Below, piece after piece: positions 15,001 through 21,000 of a DNA stretch of 64,000 bases (the stretch's first letter is position 1; each line of letters opens with the position of its first letter). Position numbers: made by a program. This stretch comes from Vulcanimicrobiota bacterium. GTDB lineage: Bacteria; Vulcanimicrobiota; Vulcanimicrobiia; Vulcanimicrobiales; Vulcanimicrobiaceae. The stretch covers positions 3,008,001-3,072,000 of the forward strand of contig OY970223.1 of the NCBI GenBank assembly GCA_963714015.1, in the 5' to 3' direction.

Positions 15001-18000
15001 ACGCGTCCGAGCGCCCGCACTTCGTCTTTGAAGAGCGTGCGCAGCGGCTCGAGTAGCCCGAAGTTCATCTCCTCCGGCAGGCCGCCGACATTGTGGTGGG
15101 ACTTGATCTTGTGACCGGCCTTGCTTGCCGGCGTCTTCGATTCAATGACGTCGGGATAGAGCGTGCCCTGGACGAGAAACTCAACGCCCGGAATCTTCGC
15201 CGCCTCTTCTTCGAAGACGCGGATGAATTCGTGCCCGATGATGATGCGCTTTTGCTCGGGGTCCGCCACGCCGGTTAGTTTATCCAAAAATCGCCGCCGC
15301 GCATCGACGGCAATGACGTTCAGATGCATGACGTCGCGAAACGCTTCGATCACGCGCTCCGCTTCATTTTTGCGCAGCAGCCCATGATCGACGAACAGGC
15401 ACGTGAGCCGATCCCCAATAGCGCGCGACACGAGCGTCGCGGCAACCGCGGAGTCCACGCCGCCCGAAAGGGCGCAAATCACCTTGGCGTTCCCGGCTTT
15501 TTTTTGAACCTCCGCCACCGCGAGCTCGACGAACGACTCCATTTGCCAGTCCGAAGCAATACCAACGATGCGGTGAAGAAAATTCTCGATGACCGCGCGC
15601 CCGTGCAGCGTGTGCACGACTTCGGGATGGAACTGTACGGCATAGGTTTTGCGCGCATCGTCGGCCATCGCCGCGACCTTACAGCGCGGCGTGCTGCCTA
15701 TCGCCTGAAAACCTTCGGGCAAACGCTCGACGGAGTCGCCGTGCGACATCCAGACGCGCGACTCGTCGGGCACGCCGTCGAACAGCGGGTTGCGCGCCGT
15801 CACGTGAAGGTTTGCAGGTCCGTACTCGGCGTGATCGAGTTTGACGAGCTGCGCGCCGCACTGACGCGCGACGAGCTGCATGCCGTAGCAAATTGCAAGA
15901 ATCGGTACGCCGCTCTTCACAATCTGCGAATCCATGTCGGGGGCGCCGGGAACCAACGTGCTTTCCGGACCGCCGCTCAAAATGAAAGCCGCGGGATTGC
16001 GCGCGGCAAGTTCGCTCCAGGGCGTGTCGTGGGGCACAATCTCGCAGTAGACGTGGGCTTCGCGCGTGCGGCGCGCAATGAGCTGGCTGTATTGGGAGCC
16101 GAAGTCCAGGATCAGAACGGTGGAGGGGGCCATCTTGGCCGTCCTTTCGCCCTTCGGCCCCCGGCCCTTTCTTGCGTCGCCCCGTTAAGCGTTCGCGGCA
16201 GAAGAGGTGCGATTCGCCGCCGCAATCACGTCTTCGTAGTCCGGTTCCTGCGCAACCTCGGGAACGATTTGCCTATACAATATGCTCTTGTTCTTGCCGA
16301 TGATGAACACCGAACGCGCAAGCAGTCCCAGCTCCTCGATCAGCACGCCGTACGCCGATCCGAATGCACCATCGCGGTAATCGGACAGAAAGTGCAGTAC
16401 GACTTCTCCTTGTTCGTTCGCCCAGCGCGTCTGCGCAAACGGCAAATCGCGGCTTACGATATACGCCGTAACGTCCGCCGGCAGCTCCGCAACGCGTTTA
16501 TTGAATTTTTGCGACTCCAGCGAACAAACGCCGGTGTCGAGTGACGGAACGACGATCAGGAGCGCATTGCGGGTACCGCCTTTGACGACATCGTCCAGGG
16601 TCACCGCTTGCATCTCCGTATTCACCAGTGTGAACCCGGGCGCCGTATCTCCGGTCGCGAGATCCGGTCCTCTCAGCGTCACTGGATTGCCTTTGAATGT
16701 AACAGTCATCGTTTAATCCTCCCGGGCTCGCGTTTCTGCGGATTAGGTCAGCACCTCTTCCAAGCGCCCGGCGTCGCGCGCCAACACGACCTCCATGGCG
16801 ATGCGTTCGCCGACGGAAACGTCGCGGCCCCACCGGTACGCCGAGTAGGGCGTGAAGCGCGTCCCGGGAGATCCGGGAATGCGCAGGGATACGTCGTAGC
16901 AGACGAATTCCTTCGGCGGTCCCGCGACGATGATGCATTGCAGTGCGAAGGGGCCGATCACGCCGGGCCGGTTCAGTTCACGCGCCACGCGCAAAAAGCG
17001 CTCCCCCATCTCGAACGCCTTCTCCAGCGTCGACTCGGTGAGCGTAGCGGCGATATGCCCCGCTTCCTCCAACCGCATCGGCACGTTTTTCAGCGCGTCC
17101 AATGCGGAAGGGGGCACGTTGCGGAAACCCTCGAGATTGGTCTGCCTGCGCGTATCCGTACCGCATAGTTCGAGTTCGTCCAAGATCGGCGAATAGAAGA
17201 AATTCAAATTAATCGAGGGCCCGAGCGCGTATTCCTCGATGATCGCATTCTGCAATCCGGCGGCACTCAACATCCCCTCGCGCATCAACCGGGTCGAGAT
17301 CGTTTGATAGTCCTGCGGCGACGAACACAAAAAGAACGCCCGTTCGAAGCTCACCTTTGCGTGGGGCGCCTTCACCATGACCAGCCGGTCGATTTCATCA
17401 GGCGACCGGAACTGCACCGGATGCCGAATGCCGGCCTTTTGCAGCAAGGCGTACTGGTTGTGTTCTTCGTCCCGCTCCTCTGCGCGAAGCAGCCGGCGAT
17501 TACCGAACATGGGCACTTTCATCCCGCGTTCGATTTGATCGTAGCTGAACTTTTGATGAAGATAGACTTCGAAAGACCGGTTTGCCAAAAAAATTACGTT
17601 GCGTTTGCGCAATTCGGCCTGAACCTCTTCACGCAAGAGGTCCGGAAACACGTCGAGCTCCAGCGTTTCGTCGACGCATCCACGTGCAGGGCTGCGCTTT
17701 ACGGCGTAATGGCGCGCATACGTCTGTTCGCGTCCTCTCGCAGTCACGACCAAATTGCGAAGACCCTGTGCGCGCGCGCCGTAAGCGACCTCGAGCGCCG
17801 AGTGACTGCCGATCGAACAAAGCGTCAGCGCCGAACGGTCGTAACCGTCCAGCAGACCCAACGCGTTCACCTTAGAGCGGCGCCAGTTCGCCGCGGCGAA
17901 TGCAGCGCCGAATCGCTTCTCGCAGTGCAGGCGAGTCCTGCTCGGCGTGCGTGGTGTAGGCATGCTCTACGGCCGTCTCGATCAGTTCCTCGCCGGTCTG

Positions 18001-21000
18001 CGCGGCCAACGCAACGCTGCATACGTCGCGATCGACATAGTCGCGGCAGAGTACGTAGATCAGTGCCATGGCCCATTATAGTCGGCTGCAAACTAAGAGT
18101 TCAAGAGCTGCCGTGCCTGCGGCGTGTCCTGGTACTCCACTATTAATATACTTTTAATATGAGTGCGGGCCGCGCTCGCCTCTTGCGTGTTAATTTTTCC
18201 CAGGGTTGTGTAAACGTCTAAGAGGAGTTTGGGCAAATCGCGATCGCGCGGATACACTTTGTGCAGATCGTCGATTGCAACGGCAACCTGCACGGCAGCG
18301 CCGCTCTCCTGTTGATTATAACCATAGCCGATCATGAAGTTAACGTGCTTGAGCTCGTTTTGGATTCCCAAGATCGACATGCCCAGCGGCCCGAAGTACT
18401 CGTCGGCCGGGGCGAGCGTCGTAAGCATCCGCGCTTCGGACATAGCATTGACACTGGCAATCGTCTTCAACTGCGGTAAGTTGTCGACGCGCGCCTGCAC
18501 GAGCTTGGCATTGACGACGTCGCCCTGCGTATAGCCGTCGACTCCATGCGATGCATTGAGCACCGCATTCAAAAAAGCCGGACCCCACGTCGTCGGCAGG
18601 TTTGCGAGTGGAAAGTTCGGATCCGCGGCGTGCTGAAGCGCCAGACTGCGCCAGGACGCATCGTGCGTGATCAGCCAGCCGCGCCACTCCGCCTCGACTC
18701 GCTGCAGCTGCGCATTGGTGTCGTGCGGAAACGCCTGGGCATTGGCCTGTGCATCCTGATCGGCGAGCTGGGCCAATTCAACGGGATCTTCCAGGGCATC
18801 CACACGCTCGAGCAGCGCCTTCGCCTTGGCCACCTCCGTTGGATCCGAATTGTTGCGTTCGACGTAGACTGCCGCTTCGCGAACGTACCACGGAACCGCT
18901 TCGTGATTGGTGAGCGGATTGTAGTGGGTCCCCGTTGCGATGTCGACGGTGTTTTGGAGAATTTCCGGGTACGCCGGATCGTTGGGCATCTGCAGCGAGT
19001 ACGCGCGCCCCGCATCGAACAAGGTCGCAAGATAATACTCTTGGTTATAGAACGTCCAGCCTTGCGCATTGCCCTTATCGTAGGCTGCCTTCATTTGGGC
19101 GTACAGCTTCTGCGGATCGGCCATAAAAGCGGCGCTCGTGACGGCCGGTGCGAGCAGCGCGCACGAGCCGGCCACGGCGGCGGCTAAGCTTCAAGAGTCG
19201 CTTAGAGTTTGCTCGAGTCATCTAATACGGAACGTAAGTTATGGGTCAAAAGTGCGTTTTTCAGTTCGCGAGCGATTCGCCTGCCCGTGGACATGGACTC
19301 GGAATAGTTCAGGTACGAGTACGGCGAACCGTCGATGAACAGGTTTGTACCCGCAACGATGCGCGCTGAAATCTCCATCACGTAAAATTGCATGTCCGGC
19401 GTAATGATCGTCTCGATGCAGAAGGCACCGAAAAGACCCTTCGGACCGCAGATCTCTTTACTGACGCGGATGACGTCTTCGCCCATCCGGTAAGCTTCGG
19501 CCAGCATCGATTCGCGCAGCGAAACGGGCGAGTTGCCGACGACGACGTACGATGGGCTCACGTCCATGCCTTCCTGCGCGGCGGCCGGAATGCGTCCGAG
19601 CGAATCGACGTTCGTCTCGTACCGCCGGTCCATGCTCATGATCTCCAAGCGGTTCTCGATCGGCGAGTAAAAATAGTGAATGTAGAGCGGAACGCCGATG
19701 ATGTATTCCTGAATGATGAAGGCTTCTTTCAAGTGCGCGGCGCGCGTCTCGAAATCGTGGGCGTCGCGAATGAAGAGATAGCCTTTTCCGCCTTGCGCTC
19801 CGTACAGTTTGACGATTACGGGACGGTCGATTTCCGAGCCGGCCCTGAATTGCCGCGGCAGCGTCAAACCCGCGCGTGAAAGCCACTCGCGCTGCAGTTC
19901 GCGGCTCGCTTCCCAATCCAAAACCGCCTTGTTGCCGAAGTACGGAATCGTCATCCGTTTGTGTTCTTCGAGCGAAAGGTAGGCGACGAAAGAACCGTGC
20001 GGCACGATGATCAGTTTGCGCTTCTCGAGTTCGTCGATGAGGTTCGGAAAGTCCTGATACCGGTCGATCCCGATCACTTCGTCGACGAAACGGAAGGACT
20101 GATACAAGCGCTCCGTCTCGCGGTTCGCAATCGCCAGCGTCCGAAAGCCCTCGTCATGCGCGCCCTTGAGGATCTGGAGCGCCGAATGCGAGCCAAGCGT
20201 TGCGATGGTATACGGCCGGTTCATTGGAACAGGCGCTCCAGCCGAGCTTCCGCGCCCCCCATTTCATGGGGCCCGCACGGACCTCTAAAGCGGTATCGAA
20301 TCGCTCTGTTACGACAGGACGATTCTTTGGTTATAAAGGTCATTCGAAGATAGCCCTTTCGATGGCGGGATTGCAAAGCAAACGTTCGGCGGCCGCTTCG
20401 AGAGTCGCGCGCGGCGCAGGCTCCCTGCCGTGCGCGAAGAGCCGCCAGCCGACGCAGCGCCGTCCTCGGGGCGCTGATTGCACGCGCAGCGGAACGTCGG
20501 CGGCATCCAGTTCTCGAATCCAGACCTCGCCTTCGCGCGGATGCTCGTTCGCGAGGAGCTCCAATTCATGCTTGTTCGGATTGAACAGCGTCTCATTGCG
20601 CTCGACGCGCGCTACGAAGTCGCCGGGCAAGCCTTCGTCATGCAGTCTGCCAAATCTCGGCGCGCTCCAAGCGTCCCACGTCGACGCCCAGACGGCGCAG
20701 TGCCGTCAGTGCCGTGTACGCCTCGTTGTCGGGAATCTTGAGGCGAATTGCTACGGTGCGCAGCGCACTCATGCTTCGAGCGCCTTTGCGAACGCGGCAA
20801 AGAGCTCGGCGCCGCCCGACGGTGCCAAAATGCCGTCGCCGGTGCGTCGATCGGGGTGGTTGTAATTCCAAGCGTCGCGTTCCGGATGCGGCATGACGGC
20901 GAGCACGTTGCCTTCGCGATTCGTTAAACCGGCGCAGCCCAGCAGCGATGCATTCGGCGTCGCCGACGCGTCCACGGTTCCGTCTTCGTGCGCGTACACG

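Follow-up and report, generated by a model that had tools for sequence, protein, structure and literature searches.

The closest described relatives of the two genes studied here are archaeal. MJ0136 (cluster Ia, or PurP I; PDB 2r7k-2r7n) is a formate- and ATP-dependent FAICAR synthetase and, in the parts of the two papers drawn on here (PMC3261824, PMC6486802), the sole characterised member of the family. Cluster Ib (PurP II) and cluster II (PurP III) occur together as a pair, in P. furiosus as PF1517 (PDB 2r84-2r87) and PF0421. The same parts of these papers cite the P. furiosus proteins of both clusters as being without FAICAR synthetase activity and describe PF1517 as binding ATP and AICAR (PMC6486802), and the titles of PDB entries 2r84 and 2r86 name this binding of AICAR/ATP. 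According to the sections of Cruz 2019 used here (PMC6486802), PurP II and PurP III are found in the same 61 archaeal OTUs, and a PurP II trimer was speculated to join a PurP III trimer in a heterohexamer. Within the same sections, Table 1 gives 37 archaeal genomes that have PurP II and III and lack purH, purJ, purV and purO, while 24 of 25 PurP I genes co-occur with purO. The homologues found there came from Archaea only (154 genes in 1,403 complete genomes), which agrees with the statement in a preliminary description of our locus that PurP is held in print to be archaeal.

We analyzed a window of 64,000 nucleotides from a Vulcanimicrobiota genome assembled as a single 3.56 Mb contig. The two PurP-like genes were found where the preliminary description had placed them, on the minus strand: PurP-A (g03251, 19202-20224, 340 aa) and PurP-B (g03248, 16743-17870, 375 aa from a GTG start), the longest ORF of the latter being 406 aa and starting at ATG 17963. 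Their assignment to the PurP family was likewise confirmed, as both exceeded the Pfam gathering scores for DUF1246 and DUF1297 (cut-offs 25 and 23.8 bits), with 139.1 and 223.1 bits for PurP-A and 115.6 and 178.1 bits for PurP-B. They were the only two PF06973 matches in the genome. The two genes lie in a purine operon, as described before, and its gene order was also reproduced, namely purB-purC-purL-purQ-purS-A-x-DUF1059-B-tpx-guaA-purD, and purD was followed by Bax1-I and then purF. All the genes named here lie on the minus strand. Pfam/NCBIfam matches identified purB (25074-26491; frame-broken near 26100, with its N-terminus, TIGR00928 positions 3-117, in a separate frame at 26096-26491), purC (23832-25031, with a weak PurE-like tail), purL (21533-23839) and purQ (20769-21536), and these four genes stood in the same order in 12 loci of the class. 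Matches of the same kind, together with synteny in class loci, identified tpx (16185-16709), guaA (14592-16133), purD (13299-14570), Bax1-I (12257-12919) and purF (10840-12213). The purS-like gene (20340-20871) gave no HMM match and was named from its position and its likeness to relatives. Farther downstream in the window, purM (3625-5004) showed AIRS and AIRS_C domains, and a folate-dependent GAR formyltransferase is predicted to be present as a purN-like gene (2499-3632; Formyl_trans_N), which scored 141.5 bits against the TIGR00639 cut-off of 150.1.

PurP-A and PurP-B belonged to two different sequence types. The closest solved relative of PurP-A was P. furiosus PF1517 (2r84; E 4e-98), followed by MJ0136 (2r7k; E 1.1e-85); it was 73-89% identical to 12 class relatives and carried the loop GAQGGKGY and the motifs HGS, GN (with Asn at M. 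jannaschii position 258), RES and EISAR. PurP-B was 58-76% identical to 12 class relatives and 32% identical to PurP-A, and it matched MJ0136 with an E-value of 2.1e-61. Its AF2 model (pLDDT 92.9) aligned with 2r7l (MJ0136) in Foldseek at TM 0.87/0.92 and an rmsd of 2.2 A. The loop of PurP-B, KAPHAKVSFERAFF, exceeded that of MJ0136 by two residues and had no GGxG motif, NRS stood where the others have HGS, His replaced Asn258 of M. jannaschii (GH), and Q311 and D326 occupied positions that are Glu in cluster I. His27, Ser94, Ser266 and Arg314 (M. jannaschii numbering) were common to MJ0136, A and B. Neither A nor B reached the equivalog cut-off of any NCBIfam model.

The motif split between the two types was clean among 61 full-length library representatives. 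We then counted individual sites in 118 cluster I and 148 cluster II sequences. Position 93 was Gly in 116 of 118 cluster I sequences and Arg in 144 of 148 cluster II sequences, and the changes E271 to Q and E284 to D each separated 116 of 118 from 143 of 148; by ATP-grasp enzymes in general, we take these two glutamates to be metal-binding. Position 258 itself served to sort the sequences into the two sets and is therefore not independent evidence. Both clusters retained His27, the ATP-binding Lys, Ser266 and Arg314. Asn258 touches the AICAR carboxamide, and cluster II was defined by these same site changes (Brown 2011, PMC3261824). By these diagnostic residues, and in line with the alignments to solved structures, A is assigned to cluster Ib (PurP II) and B to cluster II (PurP III), making them non-equivalent paralogues, and together they are classed as a bacterial copy of an ancient archaeal PurP-like pair whose function is unproven. 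The claim that the genome has two copies of FAICAR synthetase therefore fails, as only cluster Ia has been characterised. Since this is so and the P. furiosus Ib and II proteins are reported inactive, the idea that AICAR is formylated with either formate and ATP or 10-formyl-THF is kept as a hypothesis and rejected as a prediction by orthology.

PF06973 was detected in 52 of 52 class genomes and in 1 of 69 genomes of other classes, so that the pair is, as had been proposed, a hallmark of the whole class that is almost missing elsewhere in the phylum. Of 61 sampled class genomes searched with B, 60 gave a match and 59 had both PurP types; one of the remaining two had an A-type piece only, at a contig end, and the other (66% complete) had no PurP match. 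By tblastn, B lay directly downstream of A with a gap of 30-122 bp in seven of 12 class loci, which span families f3 and f2 and one genus of f1. A and B are ancestrally adjacent in the class. This adjacency is not obligatory, the two genes being 26-49 kb apart in three genomes and on separate contigs in three others. In our window they are separated by x (18093-19175), a lineage-restricted helical protein, and by a small DUF1059 ORF of 65 aa between x and B (17872-18069; PF06348, 27.7 bits against a Pfam cut-off of 21.1). The x gene had tblastn matches in four of the 12 class loci, each belonging to family f1, and the four copies shared 38-55% identity. It had no Pfam or NCBIfam match, its only Atlas neighbour was a Vulcanimicrobiota cluster (score 0.77), and its all-helical AF2 model was poor (pLDDT 62.9). 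The DUF1059 ORF had no tblastn match in the 12 fetched class loci; it lay about 1.2-1.3 kb downstream of A in four genomes of a single genus, and elsewhere in the genome in most other members of the class. Because x is found only in f1 loci and DUF1059 mostly elsewhere, we ruled out both as parts of the system and regard them as later, lineage-specific insertions.

The pair had also been described as nearly absent from other Bacteria, which understates its spread, since many CPR lineages and two Chloroflexota MAGs were found to carry the same pair in the same order. The order I-then-II was seen in 12 of 12 class loci, in 14 of 15 further loci that were labelled bacterial and held both genes (the exception being labelled Desulfobacteria) and in all 33 paired loci of a second locus set, two of them archaeal-labelled. 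Trees of cluster I, of cluster II and of the concatenated proteins agreed in their grouping. The I-then-II pairs all fell into a single clade of the concatenated tree (UFBoot/SH-aLRT 100/99), which comprised the class, CPR bacteria and Chloroflexota and was nested among archaeal pairs. The class itself was a clade (100/100) whose stem was long (0.61 changes per column) and was sister (100/98) to a group of Chloroflexota, Microgenomates/Saccharibacteria and two Micrarchaeota-labelled contigs. Since the single-gene and concatenated trees agree on one I-then-II clade among archaeal pairs, A and B moved as a unit. These results showed that the two genes of the pair reached the class ancestor together, as a single unit ordered I then II, and that its lineage, nested among archaeal pairs, is now mostly bacterial (CPR, Chloroflexota). 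Within the class the pair tree matched the family grouping, with f3 apart from f2 and f1, which fits vertical inheritance within the purine operon.

A folate-dependent purH is present in the genome, as had been stated, but it is not intact in this assembly, where a frame change falls in the inter-domain linker. The break is most likely an assembly error, since purB, purS and pepA are frame-broken too; the purS-like gene, which changes frame near 20640 and occupies two frames in the window, was an unbroken reading frame of about 130-150 aa in all 10 relatives that were checked. Most class genomes have a full-length purH, as do three pair-bearing Peregrinibacteria with complete chromosomes, and its retention alongside the pair makes the pair redundant on paper. 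PurO and formate-tetrahydrofolate ligase (FTHFS) were not found in this genome, and purT had no match at the cut-off. A formate/nitrite transporter family gene was present. FTHFS was detected in two of 61 class genomes, and as almost all of the class is without it, the pair would be the only recognisable entry of free formate to purine C2.

We favor, with a probability of roughly 55%, the reading that the pair is an obligate two-protein, folate-independent route from AICAR that uses formate and ATP and runs beside PurH. A and B would act together, probably as a hetero-oligomer, converting AICAR to FAICAR with free formate and ATP and possibly carrying it on to IMP. The predicted ATP-grasp site of A is complete, with the Lys, the glycine-rich phosphate loop and the two acidic positions for metal binding, and A would be the protein that makes formyl phosphate and formylates AICAR. 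B retains His27, Ser94, Ser266 and Arg314, the contacts to the AICAR phosphate and to the formyl group. Its putative phosphate and metal site has been rebuilt and is strictly conserved in the new form (ERAFF loop, Gln and Asp in place of the two Glu), and His replaces the Asn that touches the carboxamide in cluster I. Such retention, with strict conservation of the rebuilt site, suggests that B is a working partner with a different task, which may be either activating A or handling FAICAR. The pair would spare 10-formyl-THF, and PurH would serve the folate route.

One rival reading, which we hold to be possible although rather unlikely, is that A makes FAICAR from formate and ATP and B, as an IMP cyclohydrolase, closes the ring, so that the pair would be a complete folate-independent analogue of the bifunctional PurH. 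B keeps the AICAR-phosphate and formyl contacts but no longer has the glycine loop, each of the two putative metal-binding glutamates is altered in 143 of 148 sequences, and the sole changed substrate contact, Asn258 to His, might provide a general base that brings the carboxamide nitrogen onto the formyl carbon. The 37 archaeal genomes with PurP II and III and no known IMP cyclohydrolase, set beside the pairing of PurP I with purO in the portion of Table 1 cited above (PMC6486802), point the same way. Brown 2011 (PMC3261824) raised the same idea but found the phyletic pattern imperfect and the idea unyielding to experiment. Moreover, the class and the pair-bearing Peregrinibacteria keep the IMPCH domain of PurH, so that a second cyclohydrolase is not needed in the class, and B resembles neither PurO nor the MGS-type IMPCH domain. 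Less probable still is a purine-metabolic role other than formate-dependent AICAR formylation, such as use of another one-carbon donor or another ribonucleotide, or clearance of the AICAR/ZMP that arises from histidine synthesis. Keeping the pair with an intact PurH would be sensible if their jobs differ, both proteins fall below all the NCBIfam equivalog cut-offs, and Zhang 2008, as relayed in the part of PMC6486802 used here, suggested another formyl source for PurP II and another or no activity for PurP III. Yet both clusters conserve the contacts to the AICAR phosphate as well as His27 and Arg314, which touch the formyl group, PF1517 binds AICAR and ATP in the entries and the source section noted above, and Sulfolobus extracts, with the II and III pair only, are published to incorporate labelled formate into IMP.

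That A and B are independent, redundant FAICAR synthetase isozymes, each active alone, was the earlier interpretation, and we now find it improbable. They do share the PurP domains and fold and the residues His27, Ser94, Ser266 and Arg314, and they lie far apart in some class genomes. However, the near-invariant, cluster-specific differences at the acidic sites and in the phosphate loop suggest that the chemistry is not the same, and redundancy would not lead one to expect co-occurrence in 59 of 61 class genomes and, by the Cruz 2019 sections, in the same archaeal OTUs, nor transfer of the two as a unit; the P. furiosus II and III proteins, moreover, are cited as inactive in the passages used (PMC3261824, PMC6486802). 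B could also be a catalytically dead scaffold or regulatory subunit that serves only the assembly or stability of A, which we think very improbable. The missing GGxG loop and the two changed Glu positions would suit such a role, as would the weaker trimer-trimer contact of PF1517 in the cited part of Cruz 2019 (PMC6486802). The replacements in B (loop ER, Q311, D326, R98 and H272) are nevertheless near-invariant and its substrate-contact residues are kept, so that the site looks like a selected active site and not a relic. In the favored reading B is neither a second copy of A nor a decayed gene, since the rebuilt site is strictly conserved.

Compared with known systems, the class pair most resembles the archaeal Ib and II pair, which has the same diagnostic residues and loops as A and B and, in the parts of the sources used (PMC3261824, PMC6486802), the same strict co-occurrence, frequent adjacency and linkage to purine genes; function is unproven in both. 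It differs in its free-living bacterial hosts, in its I-then-II order (among the archaeal-labelled loci of the first set that held both genes, all but two had II-then-I) and in being embedded in a typical bacterial pur operon, with full-length PurH in most genomes. MJ0136 shares fold and domains with A and B, and the glycine loop, Asn258 and both Glu with A, whereas B departs from it at the loop, Asn258 and the acidic sites; MJ0136 is a single gene product that goes with PurO, while this genome has two diverged proteins and showed no PurO. PurH takes the same pathway step(s) in the same genomes with an unrelated fold and with 10-formyl-THF in place of formate and ATP (Brown 2011, PMC3261824). 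The pair of CPR bacteria and Chloroflexota (loci L064-L123) has the same order, falls in the same clade in three trees and often adjoins purH. PurT is an ATP-grasp enzyme that likewise substitutes formate and ATP for folate-dependent formyl transfer, but it acts at another step (GAR, purine C8) and is only distantly akin to PurP; P. horikoshii 2dwc, listed by Foldseek for the PurP-B model, reached TM 0.56. CPR hosts are mostly uncultured episymbionts with tiny genomes and patchy presence of the pair, whereas members of the class are free-living, have genomes of 2-4 Mb and carry the pair universally, and the type genus has a cultured member according to the part of PMC9758169 used here and the class name. 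The type of pair is thus already known from archaea, but its setting in a whole free-living bacterial class contrasts with the "Archaea only" distribution in print, and a class of soil bacteria with the pair in its purine operon offers a bacterial system for studying the role of the pair.

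The purine genes of the window lie in one long operon on the minus strand: purB (25074-26491; Pfam/NCBIfam), frame-broken near 26100; purC with a C-terminal extension (23832-25031); purL (21533-23839); purQ (20769-21536); a purS-like gene (20340-20871), broken near 20640; PurP-A (19202-20224; 340 aa), hereafter A; x, an unnamed gene (18093-19175; 360 aa); a DUF1059 ORF (17872-18069; 65 aa); and PurP-B (16743-17870; 375 aa from a GTG start), hereafter B. Downstream of B follow tpx, guaA, purD, a gene for a Bax1-I protein and purF, in that order, and purM and a purN-like gene are located on the same strand beyond purF, past three unrelated genes. 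DUF1246 (PF06849) and DUF1297 (PF06973) were matched at full length with 139.1 and 223.1 bits in A and with 115.6 and 178.1 bits in B (cut-offs 25 and 23.8), and beyond A and B no further PF06973 match exists in the genome, a single contig of 3.56 Mb. The Pfam matches, the operon order and the uniqueness of the two matches bear out the preliminary description, which had placed two PurP genes within a purine operon. Scans of positions 13000-27000 yielded 5 promoter candidates, against 3.2±1.6 in shuffled sequences, and 17 terminator candidates, against 15.2±4.5, neither of which was above the shuffled level. The G+C content was 0.57-0.59 over A, x, DUF1059 and B (17000-19999) and 0.61-0.63 in the flanking operon genes. 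The purC extension of ~150 aa showed a sub-threshold PurE/AIRC-like match at residues 262-342 (20.8 bits versus a cut-off of 30) and is kept in 12 loci of the class Vulcanimicrobiia (hereafter the class); a normal purE-purK pair is located elsewhere in the genome.

We compared the two proteins, which are 32% identical to each other, with the PurP groups known from archaea. The parts of Brown 2011 (PMC3261824) used here separate clusters Ia/Ib from cluster II by position 258 and the glycine-rich loop, describe the formyl contacts His27 and Arg314 as conserved in both clusters, and name Ser94 and Ser266 as the contacts of the AICAR 5'-phosphate (M. jannaschii numbering); Brown's groups are called PurP I, II and III in the corresponding part of Cruz 2019 (PMC6486802). 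A aligned end to end with the P. furiosus protein PF1517 (2r84; E 4e-98) and with the M. jannaschii PurP MJ0136, a cluster Ia protein (2r7k; E 1.1e-85). It carries the loop GAQGGKGY and a GN motif whose Asn occupies position 258, in agreement with the P-loop (K/R)GG(K/R)G and Asn258 of clusters Ia/Ib, with the reservation that the first loop position in the A proteins of the class is Q, A or H and not K/R. In the cluster I tree A stood apart from P0040, an unnamed library representative that is the most MJ0136-like as judged from its loop. B aligned best with MJ0136 (E 2.1e-61) and has GH, that is His instead of Asn258. Its loop, KAPHAKVSFERAFF, is two residues longer than that of MJ0136, where the alignment has a two-residue gap, and is devoid of the glycines. 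B also has NRS in place of the HGS of MJ0136, and Gln and Asp at positions where A and MJ0136 carry Glu. With His258 and a loop extended by two residues without the four glycines, B has the features of cluster II, and it fell inside the cluster II clade. His27, Arg314, Ser94 and Ser266 are all present in both A and B. Neither protein reached the cut-off of any of the NCBIfam ligase equivalogs NF009778-NF009783 ('formate--phosphoribosylaminoimidazolecarboxamide ligase'), the best scores being 379 bits versus 590 for A and 249.4 versus 556 for B.

To what extent these differences are fixed was evident from a larger set of sequences. A library of 1.84 billion proteins, searched exhaustively, yielded just 486 representatives at E<=0.001, and the 61 full-length ones split cleanly into two motif classes. 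Together with loci from named genomes, the enlarged set contained 118 sequences of cluster I and 148 of cluster II; position 258 served as the sorting criterion, which makes this column circular. His27 was kept in 115/118 cluster I and 139/148 cluster II sequences, Ser266 in 115/118 and 147/148, and Arg314 in 117/118 and 146/148, and the ATP-binding Lys was retained in both clusters; Ser94 was found in 116/118 cluster I and 100/148 cluster II sequences (Tyr in 37). Position 93 was Gly in 116/118 cluster I sequences versus Arg in 144/148 of cluster II, and the changes E271 to Q and E284 to D separated 116/118 cluster I from 143/148 cluster II sequences in each case. By analogy with ATP-grasp enzymes in general, E271 and E284 are putative metal-binding residues. 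The AlphaFold model of B had a pLDDT of 92.9 and could be superposed on MJ0136 (2r7l) with TM scores of 0.87/0.92 and an rmsd of 2.2 A. Since the cluster II residues are nearly fixed and the model matches MJ0136, B is a well-folded and strongly constrained protein in which the phosphate/metal site has been rebuilt, and not a decayed copy or a second A.

The pair was described in the preliminary account as class-wide and nearly missing from the rest of the phylum, and our counts agree. PF06973 was present in 52/52 genomes of the class versus 1/69 from the other classes of the phylum; of 61 class genomes sampled, 60 had a match to the B query and 59 held both types, tallies which, like the PF01808 tally below, take in three genomes flagged as unpublished (G014, G036, G050). 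The operon order was identical in the 12 class loci fetched, with A and B inside the pur operon in each of them. In 7 of the 12, drawn from the two remaining families and, within the window's family, from one genus, A lies immediately 5' of B with a gap of 30-122 bp. Gene x was found in four loci, each from the window's family, and DUF1059 had no match in any of the 12. In one relative (G047; locus L013, 10123-12446) the genes for cytochrome bd oxidase subunits I and II (cydAB) are inserted between A/x and B. On account of this adjacency across families, the restriction of x, the lack of DUF1059 and the cydAB insertion, the ancestral arrangement is A-B with no genes between, x and DUF1059 being outside the system, and the A-B gap is an insertion site that is a hotspot in the window's family. 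The idea that gene x supplies a missing enzyme of the pathway was dismissed, since the gene is absent from 8/12 class loci, including all those in which A and B are adjacent. DUF1059 was rejected as a partner of the pair on the same ground. In the nearest genus, g8, it follows A-x in all four genomes (a tally that takes in the unpublished G036 and G050; nothing else depends on unpublished genomes), B having moved 26-49 kb off or lying on another contig. Gene x itself matched no Pfam or NCBIfam family, its Atlas search returned only a cluster of its own phylum, and its AF2 model was poor (pLDDT 62.9). It encodes a helical protein with no known occurrence outside this phylum (window 18093-19175; loci L010, L011, L013 and L016), and its conserved start (…A-x-L/F-M/V-A-D-P), as seen by eye, might be the end of a putative signal peptide.

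Gene order and phylogeny were then used to trace the origin of the pair. Loci were fetched from named genomes in two rounds with one cluster II query and one cluster I query. In the first set, the archaeal-labelled loci holding both genes had, with two exceptions, the cluster II gene upstream of the cluster I gene (II-then-I), under the labels Micrarchaeota, ANME/Methanosarcinales, Bathyarchaeota and other DPANN. The reverse order, I-then-II, is that of the class, and it was found in 14/15 other bacterial-labelled loci with both genes in the first set and in 33/33 paired loci of the second; the bacterial labels comprise Curtiss-, Davies-, Sacchari-, Peregrini- and Gracilibacteria, two 'Gammaproteobacteria' MAGs and two Chloroflexota MAGs. 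The exceptions were four archaeal-labelled loci with I-then-II (L058, L060, L103 and L110), which are MAG contigs nested within the bacterial clade, and one 'Desulfobacteria' locus with II-then-I (L045); in these five cases either the pair has been transferred between domains or the contig has been wrongly binned. The pair on the L045 MAG contig is of the ANME type. All I-then-II loci were united and nested among archaeal sequences both in the cluster II tree (rooted with cluster I) and in the cluster I tree (rooted with cluster II). A concatenated tree of 55 pairs and 727 columns, obtained by a careful search on a set without named Thermoproteota, Thermococci or Archaeoglobi pairs, recovered the I-then-II clade with 100/99 support (UFBoot/SH-aLRT) and the class with 100/100 on a long stem of 0.61. 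The sister of the class (100/98) comprised Chloroflexota, Microgenomates/Saccharibacteria and two Micrarchaeota-labelled contigs, and the branching within the class matched the family grouping. Removal of the four archaeal-labelled contigs from the I-then-II clade was rejected by the AU test, the group having been chosen post hoc and mis-binning being possible. Since gene order and trees agree, A and B moved together as a unit and were acquired once, at or near the base of the class. The immediate source was probably the I-then-II branch, now largely bacterial, of a family that is archaeal in ultimate origin.

The preliminary description further stated that the genome keeps a folate-dependent purH. 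The gene is indeed present, outside the window at ~748,377-749,973 of the genome's own contig (~990-2586 of fetched locus L003), although in this assembly the IMPCH (MGS) part and the AICARFT part are separated by one change of frame within the linker that joins them. The purB gene is broken in a similar way, with TIGR00928 positions 3-117 in the ORF 26096-26491 and positions 122-432 in the ORF 25074-26459, from residue 119. The purS-like gene changes frame near 20640, and pepA (leucyl aminopeptidase; 4727-6306, plus strand) is divided between the ORFs 4727-5605 and 5536-6306, which overlap. Because purB, purS and pepA each carry such a single break as well, making four in this assembly, and because the completeness estimate of the genome is 89.6% versus 95-100% in its family, the purH break is most likely an assembly error. 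PF01808 was found in 60/61 class genomes, with few exceptions within a single open frame of some 510-600 aa; the match was split in G000, G011, G042 and G058, each assembled into 1-8 contigs, and also in G048 and G060, there at the end of a contig. The purS-like gene matched no Pfam or NCBIfam family and is unusually long for PurS; a conserved two-piece arrangement was ruled out for it, since in 10/10 relatives it is a single uninterrupted ORF of some 130-150 aa. Three complete Peregrinibacteria chromosomes (G145, G146 and G147; loci L092, L113 and L118) also hold a full-length purH, which precedes the pair by 2-3 kb in the same orientation, indicating that coexistence of the pair with PurH is common in bacteria. 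Searches of the genome gave no match to PurO (PF07826), no purT or PurU above cut-off and no formate-THF ligase, the last being present in 2/61 class genomes; a gene of the formate/nitrite transporter family is present. The purN-like ORF (2499-3632, minus strand) encodes 377 aa with a PurN domain in residues 173-370 only and scored just below the NCBIfam cut-off (141.5 versus 150.1). With this gene in the window, the idea that a PurP stands in for a missing GAR formyltransferase was set aside.

The analysis establishes which two types A and B belong to, that both are under constraint, that they are inherited and transferred together, and that they lie in the purine operon beside PurH. We infer that A and B are mutually dependent and would together provide a folate-independent route from AICAR that uses formate and ATP, in which A would be the ATP-grasp catalyst, and its partner B would carry out another task at a related site. 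Joint transfer of the two genes between domains is evidence of such dependence. FAICAR synthetase (EC 6.3.4.23) activity has been shown only for MJ0136, while PF1517 and PF0421, both P. furiosus PurP-like proteins, are reported as inactive, as far as the relevant parts of PMC3261824 and PMC6486802 go; the same parts describe binding of ATP and AICAR by PF1517 and a weak trimer-trimer contact. Sections of Cruz 2019 (PMC6486802) put forward a heterohexamer of PurP II and PurP III and list 37 archaeal genomes in which the last two purine steps are covered by the PurP II + III pair only. A route that needs both proteins fits the inactivity of the P. furiosus proteins, the ligand binding and weak contact of PF1517, the heterohexamer idea and the pair-only archaea alike.

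A stronger proposal, to which we give a probability of roughly 0.2, is that B represents a third type of IMP cyclohydrolase, one that has long been missing, or supplies the indispensable other half of a hetero-hexamer with channelling, so that A and B would be a self-contained, folate-independent equivalent of PurH that converts AICAR, formate and ATP into IMP. If so, the class would run A and B in parallel to PurH, as the sole entry of free formate into purines. In its boldest version B itself closes the ring, a reading favoured by the position of the Asn258-to-His change, which adjoins the carboxamide, but countered by the retention of the IMPCH domain of PurH in the class. Such a B would have an IMPCH-like function outside both known IMPCH families: by sequence match it is not a member of the known IMP cyclohydrolases (PurO, PF07826, or the MGS-type IMPCH of PurH), and at E-values up to 0.001 it matched no Pfam family besides the two PurP domains.

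The role of the PurP II + PurP III pair is a question that has been standing since 2008-2011. According to the parts of PMC3261824 and PMC6486802 considered, dozens of archaea have PurP II and PurP III alone for the last two purine steps, with no IMP cyclohydrolase known there and neither protein shown to be active. Here the pair occurs in a standard pur operon beside PurH across a whole class of free-living, moderate-temperature bacteria, and the class takes its name from the genus of the first strain to be cultivated in the phylum, according to part of PMC9758169. The value of the system is that an old open question becomes testable in a free-living bacterium, a tractable setting. The text of Cruz 2019 (PMC6486802), in the part consulted, reports that homologues of PurP were restricted to Archaea in a set of 1,403 complete genomes, and our literature search, which was partly unspecific and did not extend to the supplementary tables of that paper, found no report of PurP in Vulcanimicrobiota or CPR. 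New relative to print are thus the host domain, Bacteria, and the genomic context; the pair itself is already known from archaea. A and B carry every sequence-level defining feature that we tested of the archaeal PurP II + PurP III pair and, on these features, are assigned to it as a further member.
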